Shown: positions 1 through 64,000, counted from the stretch's first letter. The stretch: DNA of 64,000 nt from Candidatus Omnitrophota bacterium (GCA_041662125.1 JBAZTA010000002.1:9064-73063), one strand, 5' to 3'. The notes: generated by a model from the sequence alone, not told the origin. Made by a program: numbers and translations.

Positions 1-2
1 TA

Positions 3-3000
3 GAAGCTAGCAGTTCAATCTGTATTGATAATGCAATAAACCAGCTCCTTGTTTTAAGAAAGATTAATGTGACGAGTATCCATCCCGATGCATTGAAGGT
101 AATTGAACAAGAAGCGAAGGCATTATATACAAATAACATAGAGTGGGTGATTAAAAGTATTCTAGGGAAAAACTCACAAGATCAAGTCACTGATGCGGAG
201 ATAAAGCTTTTACTGGAAAACGCAGAGATTGAGTTAGCCGTTATGCTTTATTCGCCTGTCCTCCGGCCGGATAATTTACTTCATCCCAATACATTGAAGA
301 AAGATATTCCCGTTAAAGGAGGGATACGTATTTTATCGCCCGTGATTGCTGAAGCAGTGATTGCTGAAATTGTAAAAGAACTAGAAGTAACATTCTCTTT
401 AAGCAAACTCTTAAACGAGTATAGAAGTAACAATAAAAGATTGTCAGTGGTAGGTAAGTATACTGGTGGCTTAATAACAGGGTTGCTTCTTGCACAGAAG
501 CTCAACTTGCCTTTCGATACACTTACTAAGCGACCTTTTAACTTTGAAACTTGTAATTTAGTGGTCACTAAGGTCGAAGAGCCCCACCTTCCAATTGATA
601 GTCCAGAATACTATTCTCATATGGTAGTTTATCCTGGCACAGGCGCTATAGTCGTAGATGATGAAATGACTAAAGGTAATGTCATTGTTAATACAAATAG
701 AGCTTTGGATGCGCTTGGAGTTAAGGTTGAGGCGAATGTGATAGTTCTGCAATCTACGGTGGAATCCGGAGTAAGGTTACGGGAGGAAGGATTAGACTAT
801 TACGTAATGGGGAGTATGGATTATGACCAAAAAGCAAACTTAGAAAGGCCAATGTTCCTGCCACTTAAGAAAATCAAAATAAATAGTAATCAGCAATTAT
901 TTTTCGGAGAATTCAATGCACATAGAGATATCCCATTAGTTGCATATGCCTTAAAAGAGCAATGTGGCAAGAAACACTATTTCGTCGATCATCCGCTTAG
1001 GGGTATGACCATGGCATTGGATGCAGATTTCTATGCTTGCTTCGCACAAATGATAAACGAAGAAATAGGTAAAATTGTCGGGAATATAGGTGCAGCAAGA
1101 AAGAGATATTATGAAAAAGGAAACAGTTTGTATATACTTGGACTAACGCCATCAGGGTTATATCCTGCATTGGCTGCTTCAATGGTTTCTCGGATTCCTC
1201 TCATAGGAGTAACGAATCAATCAGAACCCAGGGGATATCCAGGAGAAGTGATTACCTATATTACTTTAGGTGGTTCTGAATATTCTATTTACAATCTTAT
1301 TAAAGATGACGGTGTAATATTAGTTACAGGAGAGGTTATTAATGGAGAAGAACAGCTAAGAGTTATAAAAGCGTTGAAAGATAAGCAAATAGATGTATTA
1401 GGAGTAGTCTCTGCCATTGAAAATGCTAATTATAATGGGCAGGAGTGTATAGAAAAAATTACTGGAGTGCATTCAAATTCTTTCTATCATTATTCCTACG
1501 ATGAAAAAATATACTCAATAAATTTCTCTGACAAAGTTTGGAGTGCTTTGAAATATGCTGTTAAAGAAATAGAAAGGCAAATAAAAATTCTTAATCCAGA
1601 AGCAGGGATACTAAAAATACAAGTAATGCCATGTTCTTTAACTAGAGGGTTAATGCTTTATGGCAGTGATATTGATCACATGTATATATATATCAATGGG
1701 TTGAGTCAGGTCCAATTAGCAAAGCTAAATACTTTATTTTCTGGTTTATTAAGAATAGAAGGCTTAAATCTTGCAGATACTAATGAGAGCGCCCCCGTAT
1801 TATTATCAACGGAAAATTTAGAGGCTTACGAAGCTAAATATGAATTAAATGATATTCCGCAAATAGTTATCTATAGAAACGGTAAGTTTAGAGATATTTT
1901 GGAACTGGCCGAAGAAAGCAATGTTATGGAGTCAATGCGATTTTTTGAAAGAAACGCTGCACGAGTAAAGCTGCTTTTATTATTAAATGAACTGGATCCT
2001 TTATTGGGGAAGGCTTTTCTTAGATTTAGTTCAGTTAATAAGTATCAGCAAGATCTGGCGAGCTTTATGGATAATGCGCATCAGTATATATTGTCAGAAC
2101 CTGCCAAACAACTTGTGATTACCTTGGATGGCCTGTATAGAAGAAAACAGTGGCAATATAAGATTAATCATGAAGAAAGCGAAGTTTTGGGAGAGGTTTT
2201 GAATGAGTTAACCGAATTCGGTTTAGTAAGAATATATCATAATGCAATTATTCCTTTATGGAGATTGCATGGGATAAGATGGACAAAGCGTTTCTGGGAG
2301 CGTCAGATTAAAATTTCTAGCGATGAAGTCAATATTGAGGAAATATTAAACAAGGTGCAAGAAAAAAATGTGCTCTTTTTATCAGATATAAGTGACGATG
2401 ATCTTATTAAATTATTCCGTTCTGATGAGCCGCTTAAGGTAGAGCAAGCTATAAATGAAATTGGTCACCGCGATAACTTAGTTTCTCAGCTAGCCGAAGA
2501 GCTTATCGATAAGCTAATGTATCCTTCTGTGTTCGTGATAGCCGCTGCAATCAATGTGATTAAAAACCACGGGATAGTATTCCTACCCAAACTAAATAAA
2601 CAGCTTTTTGAGGTAACAAAATCTGGAAAGTTAAATGATATCTTTGGTCCTATGCAAGGGAAGGCACATTTAATTATCAATATACTATTTGATTTAGCTG
2701 TTGAAAATGTTGGGTTAACCGACCAAGTGGTTAGTTTTATATATGAAGATGTATTATCAGAAATTGAGAGGTTTTCAATTCCTCATATTTTGCCGGTTGC
2801 CCTTATGCAAGAGATTAGTATTCATTTAGGCAATATATTTAATAGTATATCTAATATTCAATTGAAAGAGAACGTCTACAGATTGCTTGTTAGGGCACGA
2901 GAAAGTAACGTGGCACGTACAAAAATGGTTGCTTCCGAAGCATTGGCTAAGGTAAAAAATAAGTCCCCTATTGCGGTAAATCATAATGTCGAGATAAGCA

Positions 3001-6000
3001 TAGATGTGAATTCAACCGAAGACGAAAGAGCATTAATTTTTAATGAATTGGAGAATAGAAGAAAAGCGGGTCAGTCTATTGAAATGATTATCGCTGACTA
3101 CGATGAAACCTTAATTAGATACATCCCTGGGGAAAACCGAACTCTCAAGCCTCAAGTATGTTTCTGGCTTAATTGGCTTATGAATAATGGCAGGCGTTTG
3201 ATAATTGCAACTGGCTCTACCTACGAGAGATTCTTTAATACCGCTTTAGATGAAAGGCTACCGATTCCTTTGATAAACTTAAAAGAACTGCATGTGTTCA
3301 CAGAAAACTGTAAATTTTATAATAATAGGGTGACTAAATTTGAAATTATCCCTAGAAAACTGAAAGAACATATTGCCGGTATGCTTAATGTTGAAGGATG
3401 GTATGAGTTAGACGATAAAAAACGTCCAGGAATTCGATTTGTAAAAGCAAATTTAAATAGATCTGAAACAATGACAGTGGCTAGAAGGCTGAACAACGAA
3501 CTTTTACGTTTAGGTTATAATTATGAAGTTATTGTTAATCGTTTAAGCGGACTGGGTGATCTGTGGGCAATAGGTATCTATACAATTACAAAATCAATCA
3601 TATTTGACCCTGCATTTTCATTAGGTATTAATAGCAACAAATCAATGCTTATATTTGACGATGCAGGAGAATTTGGGGTTGATAGATCTTTAAGTGTGCA
3701 TGCAAATGGCGCAATAATGGTGAATGTAGGAGAAGAAATAGCCACACCTATAGGGATGTATCAACTAAAAACCAAGAATGAAGATGGGGCAATTTTAGCA
3801 ATAGAGGCTTTGGTTGCCGCTACTATGAAAGAAATGTATGGAAGAAATTTGAATAATTTATTTCAAGAGTTAAGAATGAGATTGATTCAAACCAAGATAT
3901 TCGAGAACTCCGAAGTGGATTTGATTCTTCGACCTGTCAAAGCATTAACTTTAAAATGGTCATCATCAGCAATAACTATTACCGGGCACACTGGTGACAT
4001 CGGAACTGAGCTGGCACGATTTATCCTTAACAGAAATTTACCAATACGAGTGCTCGTAAGAGAAGAATCTATCCAAAAATCCCTCATGCGATTCAAAGAA
4101 GACGCGGAACTTATAAGGTATTATATCGGCGATTTATTATCTTTCTCGACAATAAGAGAGATGGTGTCTTCTACTACTAAAGTATTTTACCATCTTGGCG
4201 CAATGGTGAGTCAAGAATTTAGTTCTGAACAAAAAGCGTTAGTGTTAGCAATAAATGGTTTCGCAACAGGGTTGATTGTGAAGGCAATAAAAGATTCTAA
4301 TAGAGATATTAAATTAATTTATGCATCTAGTCAAAGAGTCTATCAGCTCTATAACCGGAAAGATGTAGTGGGTTTCATCCAGATTGCATACGATATGTTT
4401 AATAAAGAAATAGGATGTTTTTTTGATCCCTTAAATGCCGAAGTTAAAAGAAGAATATTAGCGGTAAGTCAGGCCTTATTAGATAAACTTCCGCCCGGAG
4501 TAAATATTTACGATATTTCAAAATTACTTGGAGAAAAGTTTGCTAGCGATCTCTCCAATATGACGATAGTCCGTATCAGTAATGTGTATGGCCCAGGACT
4601 TACAGGAAATAGATTGGTACGAAGGCTTATGGGAGGAAGGTTCTCTATTCAAGGTATTGAAATAGTTAATGAAGAAAGAAATTATATTTATTCTAATGAT
4701 TTGATTGAAATATTATTTAAGATTGGCGTTAATGTTAATTCGCCAAGAATCATAGATATTGCAACAGGAGCACAACTTGCCATTGAACAATTGATTAATG
4801 TTATATATAAGTTTACTCCGGACTGCTCAGGCATATTAACTCCGGTTGGTTTACACAAGCCTACTTCTGAGCAGGACGGTGATATTGCCAGGGAAATATT
4901 GGGCAGAGATTTTGTAGATTTGGAGACTGGGTTAAGAAATACTATAGATGATTATAGGTTAAGCGAAACGGATAATTACGTTCACTCGGATCCTGATATC
5001 ATTGTTTTTGATATCGGGGGAACTTCAGTGCGAGCAGGAATTTATAATAGAACAAAAGGAATTTTTAGCTTTATCAAAGAACATTCTCCAAACTTTTTCC
5101 TTTTAAATAGTGATGTTGAGAAAATGCAGGAAACGTTAATCCGTATATTAATCGACACAATCCAATATTTAAGGCTAGAGAATCCGAACAAGACACTGAA
5201 TTATGTAGGCATTGCTTTTCCTGGACCGGTGAATAACGATGGATTTATTACTGGTGCGGCTACTTTGTGGGGCAAAGCAGGAGAGGGCATTTATTATAAT
5301 TTAGCCACACATCTGAAGAAGACTATGCCTGATTTAAAGGAAGTGTTTGTATTAAACGATAATAGTGCGGCTACTTTTAGATATGTATACGAAAAAGATA
5401 TTGAAAAGATTTGTTTGGTTACAATTGGCTCTGGAGTAAGTAATAAGATAAATGATAAGAAGCAGGGGTTGTTAATGGACAAAACTGGGCTTACTGGAGA
5501 AATTGGACATTTGAAAGTCGATTTTTCACGCAATGCTTCTTTATGTGATTGTGGCGGAAGAGGCCATTTGGGTAGTGTAGCGAGTGGGAGGGCGGCTGAA
5601 AGGTTAGTAAAGAAAATGGCAGCACAACAACGTTATCGGATTCTATTTGAAAATTCTTTACTCTTCAAGTTAAGTGGTGGTGTCCCATCCATAATCGATA
5701 ATTCTATGTTAGTTAAGGCTATCAAGAATAATGATAAATTCGCCACGATAATCTTAGATAGGTTCACTTTTTATATGGCCTTGGCGATAGTGCACATTAA
5801 TTGTTCTCAAGTAATAGAAAAATTCTTTATCACTGGTGGCTTTGCTAACGCCTTAGGTCAGCATTATATAGAGTCATTGAAAAGAAACCTTAATAAGCAT
5901 GATTTTTATGGGAGAAAAGAAAACTATGTTGATTCTCTCGTTGAGTTAGGATATTCTGATGATTTAGATTGTTTAATTGGAATGGGATATTACGTAGATA

Positions 6001-9000
6001 ATCATCTGTTAACAAGAAAGCAATCTCTTATCGCTTACAAAGGAGATTTAAAAGAGTCAGCAGGTCAGCATAATAGTGTGCTTATTGAAGCAAGTGCTTC
6101 AGAAAAAATTGAATTTACGAATTATTTTACTACAAATATATTTAGTGAAACGAATACTATATTAGCTTCCTTATGTGAAGGTAGAAGTATTACAGTTGTC
6201 GTTGATGAAGTTATATTTGATTTATATAAAGATGCGGTGAGGAACTATTTAGAAAAACATAAGATTGCATTCACTTTGTATCCTTGGGCAGGGGCAGAAA
6301 GTAATAAGAATTTAGATTCAGTTTTAAGAATGATTAGTAAAGCAATAGAAGATAAAAGGGATCGCAAATCAATTTTTGTGGCAATAGGTGGTGGAGCATT
6401 AATGGATGTTGTAGGATTAGCAGCTCAGCTTTACAGAAGACAAATAGATTACATTAGAATTCCTACTACTTTGCTAGGGCTTGTTGATGCAGCGGTTGGT
6501 GTCAAAGTGGGAGTTAACTATGAAGGGCATAAGAACTTCGTCGGTAGTTTCCATGCCCCTTATGCCGTTATTAGCGATTCAGCTTTTCTTAGTACTTTAG
6601 ATGCAAGACAAATGAGGGCGGGTGTAGCAGAAATATTAAAAATAGCGATAGTATCCGATAAGGAGCTTTTTGAGCAAATTGAACAATGGGGTAAACAGTT
6701 AATTAATAATGAGCCATTTCATAAGAAAGATGGGATTATTAAACGGGCAGCTGTTGAATTATTGAAGCATCTTCAGCGCGACTTTTATGAAAGAGATTTA
6801 ATGAGACATGTAGATTTTGGCCATACTTTTGCCCATCAAATGGAAGATATGAGTAGATATTCATTATTGCATGGAGAAGCGGTAGGTATAGATATATTGT
6901 TCTCTAGTTATATTGCATTGCGGAGAGGTATTCTGCCAATTCTTGTTTTCCATAGGATTGTCAATTTGATTAAAAGTTTGGGATTACCTTTATTTGATGT
7001 CTCAATTAATTTTAATGAAATATGGAATGGTATAGAGAAAGCTAAAGCTCATAAGGGCGGCAAGCTTACAATGGTAATTCCTAAAGAAATCGGGCAGACG
7101 GTATTTATCAATTCTTTATCTAAACAGGAGATTAATGGAACCCTGGTTTATTTTAAGAAATTAAATGAAAACACGTTTCAACAAGATTCAAGTAGCCCGG
7201 TAAAATCAGAAAGGCGAGTTAAGATTGAAGAAAAACTAGCGGCGCAAGATCTGGAGCATAAGGTATATCTGATAGAACAAAAGCATATTAAACAAGTAAA
7301 AGATTTGTTTGTAAGGGGTTATGACTTTGATGTAGTTTATCATCCTGTGGAGGACTGGGATTCTGGTAAGCTATTCTCGTACTATGGAGAATTTGAACAG
7401 GTAGAAGACCCGGATGCTGGTAAGCCGTTCTCTCACTATGCAGAATTTGAATCTGCTGATAGGCCGGAAAGATTAGAAATTGTGGTCAAATCAAGCAGCG
7501 GGATAATATGGGCTTTGCCTCCAGAATTGCTGGAAATAGCATTAACTATTAGGTGTAACTTAAAGTGTCTTATTTGCTCAAGGTTTAACAATGACTGGCG
7601 TAAACAAAAATTAGCATATATATCTTTAAAGCATTTCGAGCATATTTTTTCCTCATATGATTATCCATTTCCTCGCATCCAGTTTTGTGGCACCTCAGAG
7701 CCAACGCTTAATCCTCAATTGGTGGATTTTATTCACTATGCTGCAACAAAAATGGCTTCCGGAAAAGAAATAGAGCTTATTACTAATGCTATATTACTCA
7801 CTCCTGCTCTTAGTATGGCATTAAAGGATGCAGGATTAACTTTATTAAAGGCGAGTATTGACGGCCCGGTTGAAGAAAGGTCACAAGGCGCCCCTCGACA
7901 AGCTCGGGGTAAACAGGTCTCAGGTCGCATGTTACAAGATTTTGGGTGTTTGGTGGGAGCAAGAAGCTCGACTTCACCCTTACGCGCTATAGATCAGGTT
8001 TTAAATAGTGAAAATAGAGTGTTTGGAAAGAGTATGATCCAATCGGTTATGCCTCGCGCTCCTCCGGCTATATATTCATCCGCTATTTCTATAGAAGCGA
8101 TTGGTAGGACGTTAAACCATTCAAGCAGCGCGATCACTGAAGCTCGCAACCGGCGCATATTACAGAGAGTGGTGAATTTCTTGTCAGTGAGAAATGAGTT
8201 AGAAAAAGTTGAATTGATGATGGTGTTGGGAAGTCCTGATTTGCGAATCCCGGAAGTTGCCGCTGAACTGTATAAGCAGGGTTATGCATTTAAGATAATT
8301 ACTTCCGGAGCCAGAGGCAGATGGGGTAATCAAGATTGGAAACTGACAGAAGCGCAGATTTTTAAGAAGATAATGGTAGAGAGAGGCGTGCCGAAGAAAG
8401 TTTTCTTACCGATGGATAGAAAAGCTACTAATACGGGAGCGAATTTGAGGAATATTATTGCTATTCTGAAGAAAAAGGAGATAAAGCCGGAGAGTATTTT
8501 ATTGCTTCAGACGCCTATTTCACAGAGAAGGACATGGGCTAATTTTACCCATGATTTTGAAGCGGAAAAAGGTTATTTCGGAGCAGTTAAATGTGTCAGT
8601 TATGCGCCGTATATCCCTGATGTGGCAGCAATGAGTTATGAGGAATTCTACAAGTTGCTTATTTTTACCTGGGGAGAAATAGAGCGGCTTGTTGAATATA
8701 CCTATAACGGTTGGTTAGATAAAAAGTTATCTAGAGTTTCTAAGAAAATGGTGATGCAAACAGCCGCAGCTTACATGGATGAACGAAAGAAAGAATTAGC
8801 TAAAAAGTTAGTTTCCAGTAGCCCGATACAATATACCGTTAATCGGTACCAACCTCAGGTTTATAGTGTTGATATGTGGGTTAATAAAGTTCCGAATGGA
8901 AGATATTATTTCAATAGAAAAACCAGCGTGGTTGAAACAACTATGCCTCATGATCCCAAAGCGCATGTTACAAAAATTGTAGGCAAACCAATAGAAGAAG

Positions 9001-57000: not shown

Positions 57001-60000
57001 GTTTAATGGAAAGCGGCTATAATGTTACCTCTACTTTTCACATGTTTCTTTCTCCGAGGTTAGAAGAAACAAGGGAACAACAACCGTTCCTTGCCAGATT
57101 AATAGAATTGGAGCGAGAAGCCATCGCGGCAAATGCAAAAATAATCGTAAACAGTGTAATGATGAAAAGAGAACTCCTAAGATTATGCCCTGATTACATG
57201 GGAGATTTGTTTGTTATCCCTAATGGCGTCGATGAATATCATTTCGAGATGAAAGAATTTCCTCAGAACAAAACACCGATAATATCTACTTACGGCAGGA
57301 TTTCCCCGGAAAAAGGTTTTGATATTTTTATAGAAGCGGCGAAGATTATAACCGAAAGAAGGCGCGCAGATGGTAAGCAGCCGGTTGATTTCTTGTTGTT
57401 CGGTAAGACTGATGATAGTATAGAAATTAGAAGGAAGTATAAGGAGAAATTGGAAAAATCAGCTGCTGGTTTTGATAATATCAGGCTTATTATGACGCCA
57501 GAAGGCGTGTGGGGGGCAAATAGAATAAGGCTTATCGATGAGAGTTGGGTAGGAGTAGTGCCGTCACTCTATGAGCCGTTTGGTTTGGTTTTGACGGAAT
57601 ATATGTCACGAAGAAAAGCTGTAGTAAGCACTTTGACGTATGGGGCAAGAGATATACTGGGAAAAAACAGCTTAGGAGAGAAAGGTATAGAAGAAACACT
57701 GTTTGGCCTGGTGGTAAAAACCGACGCGGTTTTTATTGCTGAAGCTATTGAACAGTTATTGAGTGATACTCGGGGAAGGATAGAGAAAGGCAATGCCGCC
57801 GGAAGAAGAGCCCTGGAGATGTATAGATGGCCAAGGATAATCAAAGACATAATTAAGGTGTATCAAAATCATGCGGCGGATCATACTCGCCCAGGAACTG
57901 GGGGGGATTTGTTTGTTTTGCGTCAAGATATTGAACACCGGTGGAATGAGTTAGTAAACAAGGAATTAGCAGAGAGAGTGGAAAATCAAGGGATACGTGA
58001 GGTTGAAACTACTGGGGATTTGAGTAAAGAAGATGGGATTATATGGTTCCCAAGATTGTTAAAATATAAAGTTTTGGATAAACCGGGTGAAATTGTAGAA
58101 TTGCCGGGTCCTTTAGCGTATCAAGAAGGAGAGTGGTTAGTACAATACAATTTGAGCAGGGGCGTCCCGCGCGGCGAAGGACAGGATAAGGCTCCTGTAG
58201 TGAAAGACCAATGTGTATTTTGCAGAATGGTAGGTAATGCTGATAATAAATTTTTGCTTATTGATTTAGAAGAGTACTTTGGCCTGCCATATAAACTTGT
58301 GGCCGACTCGCGCCCATTCTTTGATAGGCATATGCTTATTTTGGAAAAAGGGCATACAGGAGGTATTACTGTTAAAGGTATGAAAGACCTGTTGTATATA
58401 TTTAACAGATTATTCCCCGGCAGGAGAGGTAACATCGGCACCGGTAATCAAGCCGCGCATTTACATATCCATGTTTATGATATCGCTTTTCCTATTGAGC
58501 GTCAGAAGCGTGAGTGGTTATGGCAGGCTCAAGGAGTTAAAATCGGTTTGTTGGAGAACGGAATTGGTACCGCGGGATTTGTGGTGGAAGGAATTGATGC
58601 CGGTAGCTTGGCAATTAATTCATTTTGGCTTTTGGGCGAATTAGAAGCTTTGGGTTGGCTCATGGTGGTTATGACTGCCCCTCACCAGGTTTACATTATA
58701 CCGCAGAAAAGCAAGGAAATAGGCGATGCCTATCCGCCGATATTAGATGCATTTAAAAAGAACAGGCCAATTGGTATGCGGCCGCGTTATGTTGGCCCGG
58801 TCGAAGTAGCGGGTATTTGGCTTTGTTACAGCCGCGGGGATATCCACGCGATGGAAATAATGTATGAAACAATAGATTTGGAAATATATAAAAATATTTT
58901 GCGGGATACCGGAGTTAACAAAAGTGACCCGGGTGTAATAGATATAATTAATAAAATCTCTGCAAGGCAAGCATCTTCCAGTATTAAAACCGATCAAATT
59001 AAACATTTGCCGATTGATCATTTAATTGACGAAAAATGCATCTTTTTAGAGTTACACTTGACGAACCAATGCAACCAAGATTGTGATTGGTGCAGCTATA
59101 AAGAGGTCAGAAACTTTGAATATATCAAATTCGAAGATTTAGATAACGTGGCTTCTCTATCTCCGGAAGAAATCTTGATTGTTGGCGGAGGAGAGCCTAC
59201 TCTGTATGAAGACGCAGGTAAGGATTTTAATGATGCGGTGTTACGGTTAAGAAAGCTTTTGCCAATGGTAAAAATCAGGCTTATAACCAACGGAACATAC
59301 ATCCCGGAAGGGCTATGGTATAAGGAAATATCAGAAGTCAGCATATCCTTAGATGCGACCACGAGGGAAGATTATTTCAGAACGAAGAAAGTAGATTTAT
59401 TCGTTAAAGTTTGGGATAAGATTAATTGGTATTTCCGGATAAGCCGTATACCCATCGTGAGAGTTACCATGATCTATAATAAAGATAATTTGAGTAATGC
59501 GATTATCTTGGCAAGAAAACTCTGGGAGGTAGTTACAACACAAAAAGAGGGGGCTCCGGCCAATACGTCAACGTTGTGGTTTATGATATTTCCTATGGCA
59601 AATGATAAAAATTTCGCCGCGCCATACGAATCGACCGAATTGAACGATAAAGAGAAAGAAGATTGGAAAGAGAAGCTGGAAGAAATCAAGAAAACAAACT
59701 ATCCTTTTTGGGTTTTCTTAACTCAAAATACTAATCTTGCCACTCAACCATTTCGGAGGCTTTTCGTACGGCCGGCTCACTGGTGTTGGCAGGTTTCAAA
59801 TTATGTGATAGTGGGCGCGGATGGTAATTTCTATCCTTGTTTCGCAGTGTGCGAAACGCATAGAATAAATCATTTAGGATCATTGAACCAAAGCGCCAGA
59901 CAGCTTAGGGATAAGAGGGTGCAAATATTCAGAAATCCTCCTATGGAATGTAGAAAGGGTTGCAGGCCGATTACTACTTTTTACGGGATAAAATCAATGG

Positions 60001-63000
60001 GAGCATTAATTGATAGGTTTAAGCGGGATATTTTACCTATGGATGCCTATGTAATTAGCTTTTTTGACAAACGCGCAGAAAATGTTGAGGTCGCAGGCGG
60101 CAAGGGTAGTAATCTTTATCGGCTGAGCACATTGGCCCATACCAAGAAAGATTTATATATTCCTGAAGGGTACATTTTAACGTCGGAATTATTCTGCGAT
60201 ATGGTTGTGGAACAGGAAGGGCTTAAGGGGAAACTTGTGAAATTGGAAAGTTTATTTGAGGAATCAAAGATGCTTCCCGCGGGTGATAAGGTAAAAATAC
60301 AAAGCCAAATTAAAGAAATCTCAGAAATGATACAGCAGGTAATCTTAAAAATAAGTATACCAGAAGAAATTCAGGACAGGGTATTCATTTTGTTTAAGAT
60401 TCTAGGAGAGAGAGTCGCAGTAAGGAGTTCGGCTAATATTGAGGATGCTAATAATATTTCTTGTGCTGGTCAGGCAAAGACTATTTTAAATGTTATCGAT
60501 GAGGGGCAACTGTTAGAAGCTATTAAGGCAGTATGGGCAAGTTTATATGATTATAGTTTTTTAGTTTATTGTAAGGAAAATAATGTTTTATTAGAGAATA
60601 TAAAAATGTCAGTTATTATTCAGGAAATGGTTGATTCAATTGCCGCGGGGGTTGTCTTGTCTGTTGATGAGCAATCAAAACGTCCCGCTTTTATCATTAA
60701 TGCCAACTTTGGCTTCGGGGAATCGGTAGTGAGGGGGAATATTATCCCCGATAGTTTTCTGGTAGGTCCTGATGCAAAGCACATCTTAGATGTAAAAATA
60801 GGCTCTAAAAATAAAAGAGTCGTGAGTGATGAAAAGGGAGGAATAAAAGAAATAGATGCCGTGGGGCAAGATGTTGTTTCTTTGGATGATACAATGGTCT
60901 TAAGAATAGCTGCTGTTGTTCGGTCTATTAGGGATTATTATAGAGAACGAGGTTTCGCAAAACACGTAGATGTCGAGTTTGCTTTAGAAGAAGGCGCTGT
61001 TAAGGTATATATTCTTCAGTGTCGCCCGGTAACATCACTCCAGAATAGAAAAAGAATAAAAATAAAAACGGCGGTGCACGATTATTGCCCGGAAATCCCT
61101 CGGATAGAATTTCGCTCAGGTGTAATAAGCAACAAAGGTGCTGTGTATGGTAGATTGCAAGTGATCTATGATTCTGAAGGGTACGATAATGTAGAGGAAG
61201 GGGCGATATTGGTTACATCTTTTACCACAAACAGATGGAATGATGCGTTTAGGAAAATAAAAGGCGCTATTTCTGATTTAGGTGATAACGGAAGCCATAC
61301 GGCTATAGCTTCTAGAGAGTCATGGTGCAACGTGCCTTCTTTAGTGGGGACTTCTCATGCAACAGCGCTATTGCGGGAATGGGATGGAAAGATGGTTACT
61401 TTTGATTCGCGTTTGAAAACTGTGTTTCTAGGCTGGTTATCCATAGAAATAAGGGAAATAGATATTTCTTTTTGGGAAGATGACGATGCTTTGGAAACAA
61501 CTCAAGATGATTTTGATGCTGATTCATGGGATCAGCTTAGTAAAAGGCAGAATGCTCGATTAGACTTTGAGGGGGCATGGTTTGCTAAGCCACTAAAAGA
61601 ATACAGTTACTTTCAGCTTAGTTATTATGATAGGGCATTTGACGTTATTTACGAAATACACAAAAGATTTAATTGGCCAAATAATGCTTTTCAAAACAGG
61701 GATACCGTTATTGAGCCGAGGAAAAGAAAAATCAGAAACGGGATTATTTATGTTGAAATAGATCCTTCTCAAATAATTGGAGCGTTGGGTAAGTTTTTCT
61801 TTAGCTTAACGTTGGAGGGTTATGAGTATTTATTGGAGAGAAGATGGGAGTTCTATAAGCAACTGGAAAGTTTTTCCGGTGAATTGCAGGAAATAAACGC
61901 TTCTAACGTAGAAGTAGTCGTCAATATGTTGGTTGATGTTTTGTCTTGGAGTACTATGGTATTTGAATTAGATCATGTTTTCAAATATAGGTTTCTTAAT
62001 CCGCAAAAACGGTGCATTTCTCATGAGGGGGACTGTAATTATCAGGAATTAGCTTCTAAATTCGCTTTACTTAGGTTATTCCCGGAAAGGGCCAGGAGTT
62101 TAATTAAAGAAAAGACAAAGCAACTACGGATAATCGCTGAGATCGTCAATAGAGACCTTGAGGCTAAGGAGATTTTTCAAGCAAATGACAGTGAAGTGTT
62201 TAAAATAGAAAAACCCGAAATTTGTAAAAGAATCAACAGCCTTTCCCGCCAATATAAGCTTAATTCAGAGGATATCAGAATAAGTTGTGATTTTGAGGGG
62301 AACTTTAATCTTGTAGGCGAATATTTGAATAAAAAGATGCCCTTTGAAGAACTTGTTGATTATTGTGAGAGTTATTTTAAGAAAACAGACGCTGGTTTAT
62401 TAAACTCCGCCGTGTGTTCGGAAAAAGAAATTAGTTTGTTGTTAAGCGGTTATCTGCGGATCAATGAAAACCTTAGTGCCCAGGACCGAATATCTGAACG
62501 CATCCCCGGCTTAGTCGATGAAATAAAAACTAAAATTAGGAAAAATGAAAGACATGCGGAAACAGTAATAGATGCGTTAAAAACATATCCCCGCATGGCA
62601 AGAGTACTTGCTATAGGAAAACAGAATGAAATTATTAGAAACGATGCGCACCATATTATATCTCGATATCAGCGAAAAATATGCCCTATGATGTTAGCGG
62701 TGGCGCGAAGGCATAGGCATGTTTTGGGTGATGAATTACATATTTTTGATTTAAGTATAGAAGAATTTGTTGCTTTGTTAAAAGAAAAAGACCCTTCATA
62801 TCTCAAACATACATTTGAGAGAAACAAAAGAATTGAAGTAATTGAAGAAGCGCTGGAAATAACTTGGGAAAAGAATAGAATCCTAGCCGTAGAAAACTAT
62901 GAGAAAGGTCTTCAGGGGGTATTCAATATTTTAGATATGCAATTAAGCCAATCTGCTGAAGTCAATGTTTCGGGGTATTACAATAAATTAAAAGTAAAGT

Positions 63001-63920
63001 ATATTTCTCGTCTAGGAACATTAAGATTACTAGCGGATTCTATGAGTATCCAAGAAAAAGAGTGTTTAGATGATGTTCAAAAAGAAAAAGTATTTTCCAC
63101 ATCGTCTCCGGTCAAATATGCGAATTTGCCAAGAGTTAAAGACAGGTTTTCCGTCACGGCGTTTTTATCAGTCAATAGACAATGGTTAGTTTATCAAGGT
63201 CAAGCAACTTCGCCTTTGGCAATTCCTGAACGGGGTTTTTCATCATATGTTCTTGTTTTTATTCTAAGCTTTTTGAACGCTTGCGCTCCTCCTGCTTTTA
63301 TTCGCAATATTCCGACTTCTCCGTATCATATTCCTGCGTCTATTGAACGCAAGCCCGCTAAAGACATAACTTCGGTTTTGACTCCCCGGAAATCTAAATT
63401 GCAATCTGGCATTTTTACTCTCCACGATATTAGACAAAGAAAGGGTAGTTTAAGTATAGATGAATCTTCCAAGGTCATTGGCAGGCTTTGCGGTATTGAT
63501 TGGCGTTTTGTAGCTGAACGTCTCGGAAGAAAGCCGTTGATCGTCCCCGCGTATATCCCGGATTATCTGCAGTATAGCCCGCTGCCTCCAGTTATCAATA
63601 AAATAAAAAGCCATCACAAATTTGTCCTTATCGTGAAATTTATTCACCATAAAAATATTGAAGGAAAAGCGTATCCGTTCCCGGTTTCTTTCCTTGGTAT
63701 GTATGCGCGAGGAAAACTTGTGCGCTCGTTTCAGGTGGGGATCGGAGAAAATCCCGGAAATACACCATTAGGCTGGCACAGGATCACCCGGTTTGACCGC
63801 TGGCATAAATCAAGCTCATATAAGACGCCTGACGGGCTTCCCGCGCCGATGTATTGGGGCCTACAATTGGACGGTAGCCGTATATGGTTACATCAGGGGA
63901 CGATTGCCGCTCCTCTTTTA
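3..63920 (+). CDS. Giant multidomain protein, 5'-partial. At least 21,305 codons lie in the window, ending at TAG 63918-63920, which is probably not the true terminus.
   Basis: No stop codon in frame 0 (codon starts divisible by 3) from nt 3 to 63917. The frame was confirmed by direct codon reading at 3-13140, 16500, 18120, 19584, 22740, 25833, 27183-27700, 28020-28560, 30300, 30900, 31539-31620, 32700, 33360, 37182, 44952, 46779, 52662, 53544, 57555, 58452, 59040, 60084 and 63720-63920. Every listed + strand ORF is in frames 1/2 and 92 aa or shorter. Conserved catalytic motifs occur in frame 0 throughout. Confidence 0.9.
438..770 (+). other. Type I phosphoribosyltransferase (orotate/purine PRTase-like) domain
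   Basis: Translation RLSVVGKYTGGLITGLLLAQKLNLPF ... GAIVVDDEMTKGNVIVNTNRALDALGVKVEANVIVLQS. The PRPP-binding motif is the acidic-hydrophobic VVDDxxTxG (645-690). Confidence 0.6.
3972..4960 (+). other. NAD(P)-dependent epimerase/dehydratase (extended SDR) domain
   Basis: Rossmann motif ITITGHTGDIGTELARF at 3972-4020. Later IYASSQRVY (4320) and RISNVYGPG (4572-4598) match the NVYGP motif typical of NAD-dependent epimerases. Confidence 0.6.
4995..6000 (+). other. ROK-family sugar kinase-like domain
   Basis: N-terminal DIIVFDIGGTSVRAGIYN (ATP-binding DxGGT) at about 5001-5040. A zinc-motif-like SLCDCGGRGHLGSVASGRAAE lies at 5541-5600; the ROK consensus is CxCGxxGCxE and the second Cys is His here. 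Confidence 0.6.
6150..7100 (+). other. Dehydroquinate-synthase-like sugar phosphate cyclase domain (DHQS / 2-deoxy-scyllo-inosose synthase / EEVS superfamily)
   Basis: SIFVAIGGGALMDVVGLAAQLYRRQIDYIRIPTTLLGLVDAAVGVKVGVNYEGHKNFVGSFHAPYAVISD...RAGVAEILKIA at 6372-6660. Metal-binding FGHTFAHQME...LLHGEAVGIDI at about 6810-6900. These match the DHQS hallmarks GGGxxxD, IPTTLL, KN.G.F, GHT.GH and HGEAV. Confidence 0.75.
7500..7885 (+). other. Radical SAM core domain, copy 1
   Basis: IRCNLKCLICS at 7548-7580 (C-x3-C-x2-C), then YDYPFPRIQFCGTSEPTLNP, GKEIELITNAILLTP and AGLTLLKASIDGP. Confidence 0.7.
8210..8550 (+). other. DUF218 (YdcF/ElyC/SanA-like) domain
   Basis: VELMMVLGSPDLRIPEVAAELYKQGYAFKIITSGARGRW ... 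GVPKKVFLPMDRKATNTGANLRNI ... ILLLQTPISQRR resembles the DUF218 pattern (vvLG...R...a..ly..g....ii.SGg ... S.nT.eNa ... vlvT...H..R). Confidence 0.45.
10008..10076 (+). other. Predicted single transmembrane helix inside the giant ORF
   Basis: ALLVIVGLWGIVFIIWRIFKK: about 20 consecutive hydrophobic residues followed by basic residues. Confidence 0.5.
11080..11960 (+). other. Radical SAM core domain, copy 2 (paralogue of 7500-7885), with a C-terminal Cys-rich extension
   Basis: ETSNKCNLGCVICFH at 11100-11145 (C-x3-C-x2-C). YDYPLPKVQFCGSSEPTLHP, GVELITNATLLTAELAKALSDAGLTLLKASIDGP are about 60% identical to copy 1. Downstream Cys cluster LPECCCLDAIF (about 11935), possibly SPASM-like. Confidence 0.7.
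16500..19600 (+). repeat. Tandem module A (~3.1 kb): N-terminal helical/beta region plus a GlgE-like alpha-1,4-glucan:maltose-1-phosphate maltosyltransferase (GH13_3) catalytic domain
   Basis: GlgE hallmarks in frame 0: PEVARFGTWYASFPRSFGGF (18120-18180), [80 protein letters not shown]. The module starts with QSSSSAIE (16503) and ends with KKSSSAIS (19584). Confidence 0.8.
19600..22760 (+). repeat. Tandem module B (diverged copy) with a GlgE-like catalytic domain
   Basis: Collinear with A and C at about 60-70% aa identity: ARFGTWYESFPRSFGGF (21250), [66 protein letters not shown]. Ends at ASSAIVAASSAI (22746-22781). Confidence 0.8.
22760..25860 (+). repeat. Tandem module C (about 90% nt identity to A) with a GlgE-like catalytic domain
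   Basis: 22801-22920 is nearly identical to 16541-16660. VARFGTWYASFPRSFGGF (24370), [35 protein letters not shown]. Ends at KKSSSAIV (25839). The A to C offset is about 6255 nt, also mirrored by duplicated antisense ORFs in the track. Confidence 0.85.
27305..27571 (+). other. Embedded alternative-frame (frame 2) ORF with a canonical RBS inside the giant ORF. Status uncertain: possible overlapping gene or chance ORF.
   Basis: TAATAA (27284-27289, frame 2), then AAGGAGG (27292-27298), a 6-nt spacer, and ATG 27305. 88 codons to TAA 27571. Frame 0 stays open across the whole interval. Confidence 0.25.
27640..28260 (+). other. Cluster of about 5 predicted transmembrane helices (membrane anchor preceding GGDEF)
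   Basis: Hydrophobic stretches FLSLGLGALCGFYKFDFVNLPFVFVTILLLAVIIS, ILITFLSPLLILHKI, GGYVYVMALEALTMIITLPYGVLPAFLYLFVVSIVPYSL. Confidence 0.55.
28290..28800 (+). other. GGDEF diguanylate cyclase domain
   Basis: RDPLTGAYNRRYLDEEL ... [30 protein letters not shown] ... DSLFRYGGEEFCLAL (GGEEF at 28548-28562) ... RADRALYEAKESGRNKVV. Confidence 0.85.
30250..31110 (+). other. RelA/SpoT-homologue module: HD (hydrolase-type) domain plus (p)ppGpp synthetase-like domain
   Basis: HD part: GVHGIILVLADKLASGRHLETVEERISWANEVHCIYAPLAEFLKLEGL (30345-30480; compare IKLADRLHNMRTL and IYAPLAxRLG). Synthetase part: DVFGVTIISRQRNDVYHILSYL and GIQAQWNEHVVFINIEGVPCEVQIFSREDWKAKQMFDRPHWVYKL (30890-31020; compare EVQIRT...HW.YK). 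Confidence 0.7.
32180..33230 (+). other. Maltokinase (Mak/Pep2)-like aminoglycoside-phosphotransferase-fold kinase domain
   Basis: RIHGDFHFSQILR at 32721-32759 (Mak catalytic RIHGDLHLGQVLR). YIIIDLEGEPLASPHQRWEKKTPLQDVAGAIRSFGY at 32770-32880 (Mak: IDFEGEP...PLRDVAGMLRSFDY). Confidence 0.7.
33360..35330 (+). other. GH77 4-alpha-glucanotransferase (amylomaltase / MalQ-like) domain
   Basis: GVFAPLAYWRSEHDWGTGDIDVLLKVVDFSKGMNLSPLQLLPLNYPLGDNCPYHIASTYYLDPVYI at 33366-33560 matches the GH77 N-terminal signature (G.F.PL.SL.S..WGIGDF ... Q.LPL......SPY.S.S.FA.NP..I). LRIDHLLGYYRIY and VMENLGVVPQE fit later GH77 motifs. Confidence 0.75.
36160..36260 (+). repeat. About 33-aa beta-strand motif, copy 1 (YTLSFQWPGNRENGGWEGRGYRLWVLDQGE)
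   Basis: Second copy at 39165-39265 (YTLSFRWPEKQTNSGWEGRDYYFRVLGENE). Looser relatives occur in the N-terminal parts of the GlgE modules, so this is possibly a carbohydrate-binding / domain-S-like unit. Confidence 0.5.
36640..37720 (+). other. GH13 (alpha-amylase superfamily)-like catalytic region
   Basis: Conserved region II GFDGFRVDLAYEL at 37182-37220. YFVLEVYGEVP follows, consistent with region III (E). The rest is uncharacterised, so subfamily and activity are unknown. Confidence 0.45.
39300..40640 (+). other. TPR-like helical repeat region
   Basis: Recurrent 34-aa amphipathic patterns, e.g. AEALVVFDHAVAQ...LDEALVVYEEALRIASDNYAKAQ and DDKALNSFSQVLSIYP, with W/LG/Y/A/F/A/P-type spacing. 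Confidence 0.5.
44060..45060 (+). other. GT9 (heptosyltransferase-like) glycosyltransferase domain
   Basis: KRVLILTIPKMDYGAELVWSLIMNVLAMHN near the N-terminus. C-terminal VVTPDTFVMHAAIAAGKWVITPWGN at 44949-45020 resembles the GT9 DSGPMHLAAALGTPTVALFGPT motif. Confidence 0.45.
46440..46600 (+). other. Two predicted transmembrane helices
   Basis: WFMGMVMGTFIGVIICDILKF and VYVVYIIGACALLGIVIYSFI. Confidence 0.5.
46690..47110 (+). other. Class I SAM-dependent methyltransferase domain
   Basis: Motif I VLSVGCGDATL at 46779-46811. Acidic end of strand 2 (VIGADKS), FDVVLFPELIGHL, and post-motif LKEGGRIIIAT. Confidence 0.65.
47950..49020 (+). other. FkbH-like HAD domain followed by a GNAT-like acyltransferase region
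   Basis: VKCVVVDADGVLWGGIVGEDG at 47958-48020 (FkbH: DLDNTLWGGVIGEDG). LAINSKNN and LFLDDSVHERE match HAD motifs II/III. C-terminal IIDTFCLSCRAIGRTVEWAFMSNVVD is GNAT-like. Confidence 0.5.
50560..50960 (+). other. Second RelA/SpoT-type HD (metal-dependent phosphohydrolase) domain
   Basis: YFSHLIDVVKMLLVDCKL...VIIIAAILHDSLEEKDITDEVLLEIFGPRVYRIVKLLTK...IARLIKMVDRIQNVATM (compare AALLHDvvEDT...FG..va.lV.gvTK...IKLADRLHNMRTL). Confidence 0.6.
51430..51960 (+). other. HAD-superfamily hydrolase domain
   Basis: Motif I ILLDMDQTLY at 51442-51471. Motif II LAIATNN. Motif IV SIGDRKEFDLYSAARIGIAGI. Confidence 0.65.
52540..52900 (+). other. Nudix-like hydrolase domain with a degenerate Nudix box
   Basis: AFVVTPENKILLQRRAPGRAYELYLSIFGGHLKAGQGYVEAIREELQQELHL (box-like at 52662-52730; canonical Gx5Ex7REUxEExGU is only partly satisfied). 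Confidence 0.4.
53540..54560 (+). other. Gfo/Idh/MocA-type NAD(P)-binding oxidoreductase domain
   Basis: ADIVVVGAGKIGTMAGGIIG at 53544-53603 (Rossmann). TPDHMHYGSIRRLSDIGVKKFILEKPVS matches the EKP motif of the family. Confidence 0.55.
54940..55330 (+). other. Cupin-like beta-barrel domain
   Basis: GVNAHLVRINKNTSVPHFHVKQQDELYLIM ... GEIIYIPTGIGHQADN (two-His/Glu spacing typical of cupins). Confidence 0.35.
56640..57900 (+). other. GT4/GT5-type (GT-B) glycosyltransferase domain
   Basis: N-terminal IKVVHVSYQDPSHLAGGQGVAVLNICEALVLKGYE. C-terminal VVPSLYEPFGLVLTEYMSRRKAVVSTLTYGARDIL at 57555-57660 (E-x7-E motif). Confidence 0.65.
58180..58510 (+). other. HIT-like (histidine triad / GalT-like) domain
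   Basis: CVFCRMVGNADNKFLLIDLEEYFGLPYKLVADSRPFF ... NQAAHLHIHVYD (HxHxHxx at 58458-58478). Confidence 0.5.
59040..59990 (+). other. Radical SAM core domain, copy 3, with a C-terminal Cys-rich region
   Basis: LHLTNQCNQDCDWCSY at 59055-59100 (C-x3-C-x2-C). ILIVGGGEPTLYED at 59175-59215. Downstream cysteines AHWCWQ...YPCFAVCE...MECRKGC, possibly SPASM-like. Confidence 0.7.
60050..61060 (+). other. PEP-utilising-enzyme ATP-grasp N-terminal domain (PPDK_N-like; pyruvate-phosphate dikinase / PEP synthase / glucan-water-dikinase type)
   Basis: VEVAGGKGSNLYRLS...IPEGYILTSELF (60084-60190) and VAVRSSANIEDANNISCAGQAKTILNV (60418-60500) match the vGGKganL / VAVRSSa.EDl..sfAGq.dT.ln signatures. Confidence 0.6.
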
Positions 63921-64000
63921 GAGAAGCGTGAAAATAGCCTTTATCGCGGCTCACACGGGTGTATCCGCGAACAGGAGGAAGATGCCTCACGGTTGTTCAA
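63738..64000 (+). other. L,D-transpeptidase (YkuD/ErfK) catalytic domain, interrupted by the frame-0 TAG at 63918. The catalytic Cys motif lies in the -1 (frame 2) reading.
   Basis: Frame 0: IGENPGNTPLGWHRITRFDRWHKSSSYKTPDGLPAPMYWGLQLDGSRIWLHQG then RLPLLF*. Frame 2 from 63899: EIAAPLLEKRENSLYRGSHGCIREQEEDASRLF (compare YGIHGT...SHGCIRMxNEDxxELF). The junction is at the GGGG run 63896-63899. Confidence 0.65.

Follow-up and report, generated by a model that had tools for sequence, protein, structure and literature searches.

A recurring junction pentapeptide in a 64-kb slice of a giant multi-enzyme gene, apparently of the Omnitrophota kind

Giant genes have been described in the Omnitrophota. 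West-Roberts et al. (2023, bioRxiv 10.1101/2023.11.21.568195) reported “Archaeovorins” of up to 85,804 amino acids (aa), and Nielsen & Lui (2026, bioRxiv 10.64898/2026.06.07.730766) reported proteins of up to 147,155 aa in a “multi-enzyme metabolic cluster” class, with 5,761 proteins reaching 10 kAA (thousand amino acids) or more. Here we describe a 64,000-nt stretch of DNA (GCA_041662125.1 JBAZTA010000002.1:9064-73063), called the window below, with positions counted from its first letter. The window is an internal slice of a single giant protein-coding gene. A giant open reading frame (ORF) alone is one more case of a phenomenon described since 2022-2023. It is the internal grammar of the gene that could matter: a directional peptide motif splits the polypeptide into protein-sized modules and matches the edges of duplicates and the steps in codon usage.

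Archaeovorins were delimited as genes of more than 90,000 bp (proteins of more than 30,000 aa) with numerous transmembrane helices, and the type protein is the 39,678-aa product of Velamenicoccus archaeovorus LiM. Their defining set is glycosyltransferases, methyltransferases, glycoside hydrolases, peptidases, radical-SAM (S-adenosylmethionine) and NUDIX domains; the published domain figure also lists PPDK_N, GGDEF, HAD_2 and TPR. The hallmarks are a divergent SecA DEAD helicase/preprotein-binding domain and HEAT repeats, which are the most frequent, and the N-terminal region carries a signal peptide and a C39 or S8 peptidase. Whether Omnitrophota giants are cleaved was left as an open question, with unknown cut points (all from bioRxiv 10.1101/2023.11.21.568195). 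In the multi-enzyme class, KR0015B_u4168876_114 has 147,155 aa and 43 Pfams, and 46% of long Omnitrophota proteins were read as transmembrane (TM)-anchored with cytoplasmic domains (bioRxiv 10.64898/2026.06.07.730766).

The forward frame from nt 3 contained no TAA, TAG or TGA in 21,332 codons (nt 3-63998). The five remaining frames had 746-1,973 stops each, and their longest open run was 858 nt. Given the base composition, a frame this long would stay open by chance with a probability of about 10^-645. A coding signature was present in all 4-kb bins of the nt-3 frame: GC content was higher at codon position 1 than at position 2, and purines made up 58-66% of position 1.

Nt 3 to 63998, + strand: single ORF of 21,332 codons, without start or stop in the window (stop counts, codon-position signature, chance estimate)

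The recount and the chance estimate bear out the initial annotation, which had proposed an unbroken frame of more than 21,300 codons and had called its occurrence by chance effectively impossible. It was also right that the ORF track misses this frame because ORFs running off the window edge are dropped; the track lists only antisense ORFs of at most 259 aa. The end of the frame, placed at 63917/63920, had to be revised: the stop triplet at nt 63919 belongs to another frame and the ORF stays open to nt 63998, where its final residues are the YkuD active site SHGC. The gene had further been described as incomplete at its 5′ end. The start is indeed outside the window, but the 3′ end is cut as well. 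The window is thus an internal 64-kb slice of one gene of at least 63,996 nt (21,332 codons), open at both window ends and continuing beyond them. No Rfam family, marker gene or RNA was found in the window, and its nucleotide tandem repeats were trivial only.

A recurring motif was first noticed at every boundary when the three GlgE units of this ORF were aligned. In the form [S/A]-S-S-[A/P/S/G/V]-[I/V/L/M], it occurred at 35-36 sites in the ORF, with 0.5 expected from a global shuffle and 1.25 from a 40-aa local shuffle (maximum 4). The strict form SSS[AP][IV] occurred at 18 sites (0.13 expected). The reversed motif was not enriched (3 vs 1.2), and the other five frames held 1-7 sites. A relaxed pattern gave 43 sites against 4.2 expected; the additions include boundaries ahead of GH77, HAD and the YkuD region.

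Nt 6, 3960, 7188, 7491, 8121, 8814, 10992, 12003, 12813, 13578, + strand: start positions of motif sites
Nt 16509, 19584, 22746, 22767, 25839, 27591, 28812, 29493, 31485, 31593, + strand: start positions of motif sites, continued
Nt 35787, 41586, 42696, 44004, 45588, 45987, 46419, 47310, 49062, 49221, + strand: start positions of motif sites, continued
Nt 49869, 52101, 52122, 56634, 58971, + strand: start positions of motif sites, end
Nt 7968, 10437, 33276, 35892, 51414, 63099, 63204, + strand: start positions of degenerate motif sites
Nt 3960 to 3974, + strand: junction motif SSSAI, 4 aa before the Rossmann fold of the epimerase, one example of the 35 sites
Nt 19584 to 19598, + strand: junction SSSAI between GlgE modules 1 and 2; the identical 15 nt recur where module 3 ends (nt 25839-25853)
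Nt 22746 to 22781, + strand: doubled junction ASSAIVAASSAI between GlgE modules 2 and 3 (alignment)

None of 35 sites fell inside a recognized domain, though such domains make up 33% of the protein (P about 1e-6); for GlgE this exclusion is partly circular, the edges having come from the self-alignment and been entered close to motif sites. Several sites lie 4-35 aa ahead of a domain start, as in SSSAI-TITGHTGDIG of the epimerase, and the A/P-I/V residues often run directly into the first strand of the next domain, as in SSSAITITGHTGDIG. Proline follows the serine run at 13 of the 35 sites. Met and Shine-Dalgarno-like sequences were depleted at the junctions, and the composition of the flanks was not linker-like. 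P0002, a 972-aa free-standing homologue that aligns with the GlgE module over 915 aa, has a conserved core ending in ...HIFRVKK; the sequence continues with ASARTRP, and the motif is absent.

The serine codons at motif sites were a mixture of TCN and AGY, which indicates that the constraint is on the peptide and not on the DNA. A DNA repeat or recombination scar was ruled out by these mixed codons and by the lack of enrichment in other frames.

Doublets of the motif, 7-53 aa apart, were seen at nt 22746-22781, 45564-45602, 52101-52136, 31485-31607 and 49062-49235; ASSAIVAASSAI and SSSVVDHSSSPL are examples. They could represent spacer peptides or what is left of deleted modules.

The GlgE triplet gives the clearest view of the module edges. 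All three units are homologous to characterized GlgE (PDB 4U2Y, 3ZSS and 4CN4; E=3e-96) and consist of N/S domains, a GH13 catalytic domain and GLGE_C. GC3 below is the GC content at third codon positions.

Nt 16509 to 19583, + strand: GlgE-like module 1 (aa 5503-6527), predicted inactive, FRVNSPY / FLSAALT, GC3 0.59 (PDB alignment)
Nt 19584 to 22766, + strand: GlgE-like module 2 (aa 6528-7588), intact FRVDNPH / FLAEAFT / NTPDIL, GC3 0.49 (alignment)
Nt 22767 to 25838, + strand: GlgE-like module 3 (aa 7589-8612), predicted inactive like module 1, GC3 0.68 (alignment)

Module 2 retains the Asp nucleophile, the Glu acid/base and the third Asp (NTPDIL). In modules 1 and 3, the equivalents of D394 and E423 (numbering by the 4U2Y alignment) are changed to N and A, respectively. 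We take D394 to be the nucleophile and E423 the acid/base of S. coelicolor GlgEI, and we predict that modules 1 and 3 have no catalytic activity. The two share 88% amino acid and 87% nucleotide identity. Their nonsynonymous divergence (dN) is 0.064 and their synonymous divergence (dS) is 0.55, and the ratio of about 0.12 indicates that the dead copies are maintained by selection. This dead-live-dead arrangement suggests that modules 1 and 3 are selected pseudo-enzymes, probably glucan-binding. Synonymous differences between them lean to G/C in module 3, with 132 changes from A/T to G/C (W->S) and 44 in the opposite direction (S->W).

Modules 1 and 3 are homologous from one motif to a point 2-3 residues beyond the next. 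At the module edge, nucleotide identity drops from about 0.95 to about 0.3 in the space of ten codons. The last 60 or so codons of the two modules (nt 19,400-19,583 vs 25,655-25,838) are 93-97% identical in nucleotides compared with 87% overall, and the 15 nt that encode SSSAI after each are identical. Recent gene conversion may have occurred at the 3′ edge of the module. The closest GlgE relatives, found in a full HMMER scan of 1.84 billion representatives, were stand-alone enzymes of assorted phyla with 36-46% identity. A recent foreign donor of the high-GC3 GlgE block was considered and rejected: nothing exceeded 36-46% identity over comparable lengths, and no donor was identifiable.

Codon usage changes along the ORF in steps. 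GC3 was about 0.30 at nt 1-12,000, 0.53-0.56 at nt 16,000-28,000, 0.35-0.40 at nt 52,000-64,000 and 0.39-0.44 elsewhere, with a full range of 0.29-0.68. Relative synonymous codon usage (RSCU) of the ends correlated with that of the GlgE block at only 0.1-0.3, and the first and last 12 kb correlated with each other at r = 0.7-0.84. Across the GlgE triplet and its flanks, GC3 ran 0.44, 0.59, 0.49, 0.68 and 0.40, and every change point was within 19 aa of a motif. Over the whole ORF, 7 of the 12 strongest GC3 change points were within 55 aa of a junction (1.95 expected; none of 5,000 randomizations reached 7). Since both the homology edges and the GC3 steps coincide with motifs, we infer that duplication or transfer acted on entire modules bounded by motifs. 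The steps themselves may have arisen by import of modules from GC-richer relatives, by biased gene conversion or by selection. The sharpest were at nt ~16,500, 19,580, 22,770 and 25,840.

A linker or junction motif is mentioned in neither West-Roberts et al. 2023 nor Nielsen & Lui 2026, and text searches of the literature for it gave no match. None of three features, namely the junction motif, the codon mosaic by module and the pseudo-GlgE modules under selection, was present in the literature searched.

Only one close relative of the gene was found. Exact 60-mers of the window had no match in GTDB species genomes or JGI metagenomes. When the N-terminal 1,300 aa were compared with 5.8 billion protein clusters, one match, P0001, was found. 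Over aa 3-626 it is collinear with the window at 60% identity; its source is given as “Candidatus Omnitrophota bacterium QZM4_2.bins.366.Tibet”. Its contig (JAMWDA010000205.1, 2,751 nt) is one open frame with 0 stops compared with ~100 in either of the other two, and its GC of 0.33 and GC3 of 0.26 are like those of the 5′ part of the window. P0001 keeps the motif at the homologous position although the adjacent flanks differ; there is one site per sequence in the shared region. The contig’s frame is open from its first base, including a hydrophobic helix upstream of the annotated ATG (nt 447). This ATG, ~137 codons upstream of the window, was rejected as the true start for that reason. The contig, too, is an internal fragment of a giant ORF.

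Scans guided by profiles, run over genomes, metagenomes and viral contigs, recovered no locus other than this 2.7-kb contig. The junction-rich aa 15196-17374 had only generic FkbH/HAD-like matches of 33-36% identity. A word-indexed protein search missed the GlgE module (nt 16500-19712), which Pfam, PDB and full HMMER all matched strongly, so negatives from that search are uninformative for divergent modules of giant genes.

Pfam and NCBIfam scans of the 21,332 aa placed many unrelated enzyme domains on this one frame, as the initial annotation had held. Its count of more than 30 unrelated families proved too high: about 23 non-redundant Pfam families reached the gathering score, corresponding to about 19-20 recognizable enzymes. 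The highest copy number of any family was 3 (GlgE and Radical_SAM), and about half of the polypeptide had no Pfam match. The product is a chain of about 30-35 protein-sized modules of roughly 100-1,900 aa, many of which match a free-standing enzyme. It is neither a repeat protein nor a polyketide synthase (PKS) or nonribosomal peptide synthetase (NRPS); a megasynthase of this type was ruled out, as neither KS, AT, C, A or carrier motifs nor such Pfam domains were present.

The catalytic motifs were described as conserved, which holds for most of the enzymes. Intact signatures include GGEEF with RxxD, three CxxxCxxC clusters, DxDxT, GxxGxxG, YxxxK, SHGC, RIDH, EX7E, the GSH phospho-His and DIGGT. 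It does not hold for two of the three GlgE modules, or for the NUDIX box and the Rel/SpoT-like module, whose motifs are degenerate. A plain hydropathy window gave 14 candidate hydrophobic helices, about 10 of them credible, including three before GGDEF and one before YkuD. The other modules are as follows.

Nt 9 to 1880, + strand: two phosphoribosyltransferase (PRTase)-like domains (aa 134-248 and 378-501; Pribosyltran E=6.7e-4; HPT/APRT-like; acidic loop AIVVDDEMTKG), the sole part of the window with a close relative elsewhere (P0001)
Nt 3972 to 7037, + strand: junction-bounded module of three sugar enzymes (SDR epimerase/dehydratase, ROK and DHQS-like; Pfam, NCBIfam, motifs)
Nt 3972 to 4760, + strand: SDR epimerase/dehydratase (GxxGxxG, YxxxK)
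Nt 5010 to 5939, + strand: ROK sugar kinase (DIGGT)
Nt 6123 to 7037, + strand: 3-dehydroquinate-synthase (DHQS)-like sugar-phosphate cyclase (1e-33 in Pfam, 2.7e-78 in NCBIfam; GGGxxxD)
Nt 7512 to 7952, + strand: radical SAM domain a (CNLKCLIC; Pfam, NCBIfam, motif)
Nt 8220 to 8573, + strand: DUF218 domain; its 231-aa module is flanked by junction motifs at both edges (Pfam)
Nt 9660 to 10064, + strand: weak match to NAGPA (phosphodiester glycosidase; E=5e-5, 24 bits against a cutoff of 25), then a strong hydrophobic helix at aa 3336-3354
Nt 11097 to 11945, + strand: radical SAM domain b (CNLGCVIC), extended by a weak SPASM match (Pfam, NCBIfam, motif)
Nt 26799 to 26999, + strand: ParE-toxin-like domain (23.5 bits against a gathering score of 23)
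Nt 27729 to 28787, + strand: three hydrophobic helices, then a GGDEF diguanylate cyclase (GGEEF, RxxD I-site; 1e-50)
Nt 30027 to 31019, + strand: Rel/SpoT-like module (weak HD_4 and RelA_SpoT; Pfam) with degenerate motifs
Nt 33393 to 35270, + strand: GH77 4-alpha-glucanotransferase (amylomaltase; 2e-54; RIDH)
Nt 39297 to 40037, + strand: TPR repeats (Pfam)
Nt 46446 to 47051, + strand: hydrophobic helix pair ahead of a class I methyltransferase (Methyltransf_11), both within a junction-bounded module of 297 aa (Pfam, hydropathy)
Nt 50556 to 51977, + strand: HD_4 phosphohydrolase and HAD phosphatase (DMDQT) with the degenerate junction GSSPL (nt 51414-51428) between them (Pfam, motif)
Nt 52563 to 53951, + strand: NUDIX (degenerate box) and GFO/IDH/MocA oxidoreductase (Pfam)
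Nt 56691 to 57845, + strand: GT4 glycosyltransferase (EX7E), starting 19 aa past a junction motif (Pfam, motif)
Nt 59058 to 61406, + strand: radical SAM domain c (CNQDCDWC), then a PEP (phosphoenolpyruvate)-utilizing dikinase (3.6e-64) made of PPDK_N and a mobile phospho-His domain (GSH)
Nt 63246 to 63998, + strand: hydrophobic helix, then a YkuD L,D-transpeptidase (SHGC) cut by the window end (Pfam, hydropathy, motif)

Radical SAM domains a and b (nt 7512-7800 vs 11073-11360) are 52% identical over 97 aa. Weaker internal paralogous pairs are nt 12177-12827 vs 12951-13592 and nt 35976-36254 vs 38979-39260, with 23% and 32% identity. No antitoxin-like partner was recognized for the ParE-like domain inside the giant frame. 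In nt 63099-63998, the order is the degenerate junction TSSPV, a hydrophobic helix and YkuD; with the helix in this place, YkuD would lie across the membrane from the preceding ATP-dependent dikinase.

From this map, the product would be a membrane-tethered multi-enzyme centered on alpha-glucan and sugar-phosphate metabolism, with the ten or so helices as tethers. The alpha-glucan and sugar set comprises ROK, the SDR epimerase, the DHQS-like cyclase, the three GlgE units, GH77, GT4, the dikinase and the HAD phosphatases. The pairing of GT4 with GlgE presumably resembles the GlgM-GlgE route. A putative nucleotide-messenger set (membrane-anchored GGDEF, Rel/SpoT-like, HD and NUDIX) would stand beside the metabolic modules, together with three radical-SAM, methyltransferase, PRTase-like, ParE-like and YkuD modules. 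Most cofactor-dependent modules (ATP, GTP, SAM, Fe-S) would be on the cytoplasmic face, and YkuD, past the last helix, would face outward. The modules are joined almost seamlessly by [S/A]-S-S-[A/P]-[I/V], which lies at the edges of duplicated, codon-distinct units; the gene would have grown by accretion, duplication and exchange of whole modules.

We consider this reading as a whole quite probable: a giant multi-enzyme gene of the Omnitrophota kind, with modules joined by the pentapeptide, grown by accretion of cassettes, and with a processing site favored as the role of the junction. On that role we are more tentative. A fixed, directional junction of five residues points to recognition by another factor rather than to a passive linker, and recognition for site-specific processing, which would make the product a bacterial polyprotein, is our favored explanation at somewhat less than an even chance. 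We favor it over a structural hinge or inter-module cap in an uncleaved, membrane-tethered “beads-on-a-string” scaffold that groups pathway enzymes, which is possible but doubtful. Hydrophobic helices spread along the frame would suit such a scaffold, as would the TM-anchored reading of 46% in the 2026 preprint, the residues that lead straight into the next domain’s first strand, the proline right behind the serine run, which is unfavorable to many proteases, and the lack of a peptidase domain in the window. Passive linkers, however, normally vary in length and composition, whereas this motif fixes five consecutive positions, has a direction and sits between flanks whose composition does not resemble a linker; the doubled sites 7-53 aa apart also lack an obvious hinge role. 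The probability that remains after processing and a hinge goes to another modification served by the junction.

The remaining alternatives concern the gene itself. A lineage other than the Omnitrophota, with the homologous contig mis-binned, is improbable. It would fit the small size (2.7 kb) and the stated coverage of 0.64 of the contig in its metagenome-assembled genome (MAG), the scattered module relatives at 33-46% identity (GlgE pointing to Alphaproteobacteria and Desulfobacterales, the HAD-IIIC-like part to Gammaproteobacteria) and the SecA_DEAD, C39 and HEAT hallmarks, which were not seen in the window. However, multi-enzyme giants with such a Pfam repertoire have so far been described in the Omnitrophota, giants of other phyla are reported with far fewer detectable domains, and the base composition of the contig matches the 5′ part of the window. 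We give still less credence to an assembly artefact, in which all or some of the 64 kb, especially the GlgE triplet with its unusual codon usage, would have been joined from several strains or genomes or its repeats mis-resolved, and the real gene would be shorter or have another order. The wide GC3 range within one ORF, the low RSCU correlation of the ends with the GlgE block and the absence of an independent copy among the exact 60-mer searches could be read this way. Yet the frame is unbroken over every compositional step and the steps coincide with the gene’s own junction motif. The homology of modules 1 and 3 stops exactly at the module edges, where strain variants would continue into the flanks, the first and last 12 kb share codon usage, and the dN/dS of 0.12 is as in real diverged paralogues. 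Least credible of all is an operon of ordinary genes that mimics one ORF through a non-standard code, stop loss or errors, or internal initiation, even though the modules are sized like free-standing proteins and one aligns almost end to end with P0002. A reassigned stop would still show in the 21,332 codons, and none did; stops occur at normal density in the other frames. In place of a stop, spacer, ribosome binding site and start, about 35 junctions have a conserved sense pentapeptide, and the independent homologous contig also lacks stops in that frame. With no enrichment of Met or Shine-Dalgarno-like sequences at junctions (both are in fact depleted there), internal initiation at each module was rejected, and the modules are not separate cistrons.

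Several points count against the preferred reading of a processed Omnitrophota giant. The boundaries epimerase-ROK-DHQS and PRT1-PRT2 lack the motif, so some modules contain more than one domain. The motif evidence consists of this window and one site in P0001, and the lineage is supported by the one 2.7-kb contig of stated coverage 0.64, which may be wrongly binned. In the Pfam scans of 21,332 aa, no SecA family match was found (it may be outside the window or too divergent), HEAT had no match at E<=0.05, with TPR present instead, and no peptidase domain was found, only YkuD, so the window offers no candidate for a cognate protease. The C39 or S8 peptidase and the high TM count of full-length Archaeovorins were likewise not found, the TM helices being called by the plain hydropathy window only; all these hallmarks may be located elsewhere in the gene, beyond the window. 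If the cut directly follows SSS, the proline at 13 of 35 sites would be disfavored by many proteases, including signal peptidase I. The 87% nucleotide identity of GlgE modules 1 and 3 (93-97% near their 3′ ends) could also tangle a short-read graph.

Product cleavage and the limits of modules are the two open issues in both giant-protein papers. A candidate site makes the cleavage question testable and allows giants to be cut into modules in silico for predicting structures, and the junction also hints at how giant genes grow, by accretion and exchange of cassettes. The dead GlgE copies under selection indicate that pseudo-enzyme modules are functional parts of such giants. A bolder proposal, which we regard as rather unlikely, is that the pentapeptide is the general “punctuation” of Omnitrophota giants: it would mark both the cleavage of a megadalton product into some thirty ordinary enzymes and the cassette boundary for duplication, exchange and retirement, with the dead GlgE copies and the doubled motifs around 7-53-aa remnants as traces of retirement, and exchange of cassettes between lineages would then produce the stepwise GC3. 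If this were true and the motif general, it would supply the segmentation or cleavage points that West-Roberts et al. lacked.

Compared with known systems, the gene appears to belong to the Omnitrophota giant-protein kind (Archaeovorin or “multi-enzyme metabolic cluster”), on account of the 60%-identical homologue in one Omnitrophota MAG and the matching domain repertoire. Five of the six defining classes of Archaeovorins are in the window (GT4; Methyltransf_11; three GH13 and one GH77; three Radical_SAM; NUDIX), together with GGDEF, HAD_2, PPDK_N, TPR and scattered candidate TM helices, and the sole close homologue is on a contig binned in an Omnitrophota MAG. Published Omnitrophota giants share Radical_SAM, TPR, PPDK_N, NUDIX, GGDEF, HAD_2, GT1/GT4, Methyltransf_11 and ROK with the window. 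Unlike Archaeovorins, the window has no GT5 or lytic transglycosylase domains, and Archaeovorins were not described with a junction motif, a module-wise codon mosaic or a dead-live-dead GlgE triplet. As in the “multi-enzyme metabolic cluster” class, PF08241, PF13419, HD, PF00534, PF04055 and PF00480, which are families of its Pfam modules 1 and 2 (sugar metabolism and regulation), are all present, repeats have diverged in nucleotides and nucleotide tandems are almost absent. In contrast to that class, the window lacks PF08323 starch synthase, PGM/PMM, HATPase (PF02518) and the receiver domain (PF00072), and carries three GlgE, GH77, DHQS and YkuD instead. TM candidates number about 10 per 21 kAA by a rough method, whereas the catalogued proteins of 10 kAA or more average about 22 each (Nielsen & Lui). 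The initial annotation had ranked the ORF among the largest known in prokaryotes; with Omnitrophota giants of 85,804 aa and 147,155 aa already published, it is not of record length and falls far below the latter.

The three GlgE-like modules share homology with GlgE (GH13_3) of Streptomyces and Mycobacterium over the catalytic and C-terminal domains. They differ from it in sitting within a giant ORF and in carrying an N-terminal extension of ~530 aa in which the N/S domains are duplicated; in modules 1 and 3 the nucleophile and acid/base are lost, yet purifying selection acts on both. Viral and retroelement polyproteins (picornavirus, nidovirus replicase) likewise have one ORF, independent proteins and a short recurring boundary motif. 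The product here is 10-100 times larger, cellular, metabolic and probably membrane-tethered, and its proposed cleavage has no cognate protease among the domains found; to our knowledge, SSS-A/P-I/V fits no known protease specificity. With NRPS/PKS, AROM, CAD and fatty acid synthase (FAS) the gene shares many catalytic domains per polypeptide, presumably for co-localization or fixed stoichiometry. The modules described here, however, are unrelated whole enzymes of several pathways and do not make up an assembly line.

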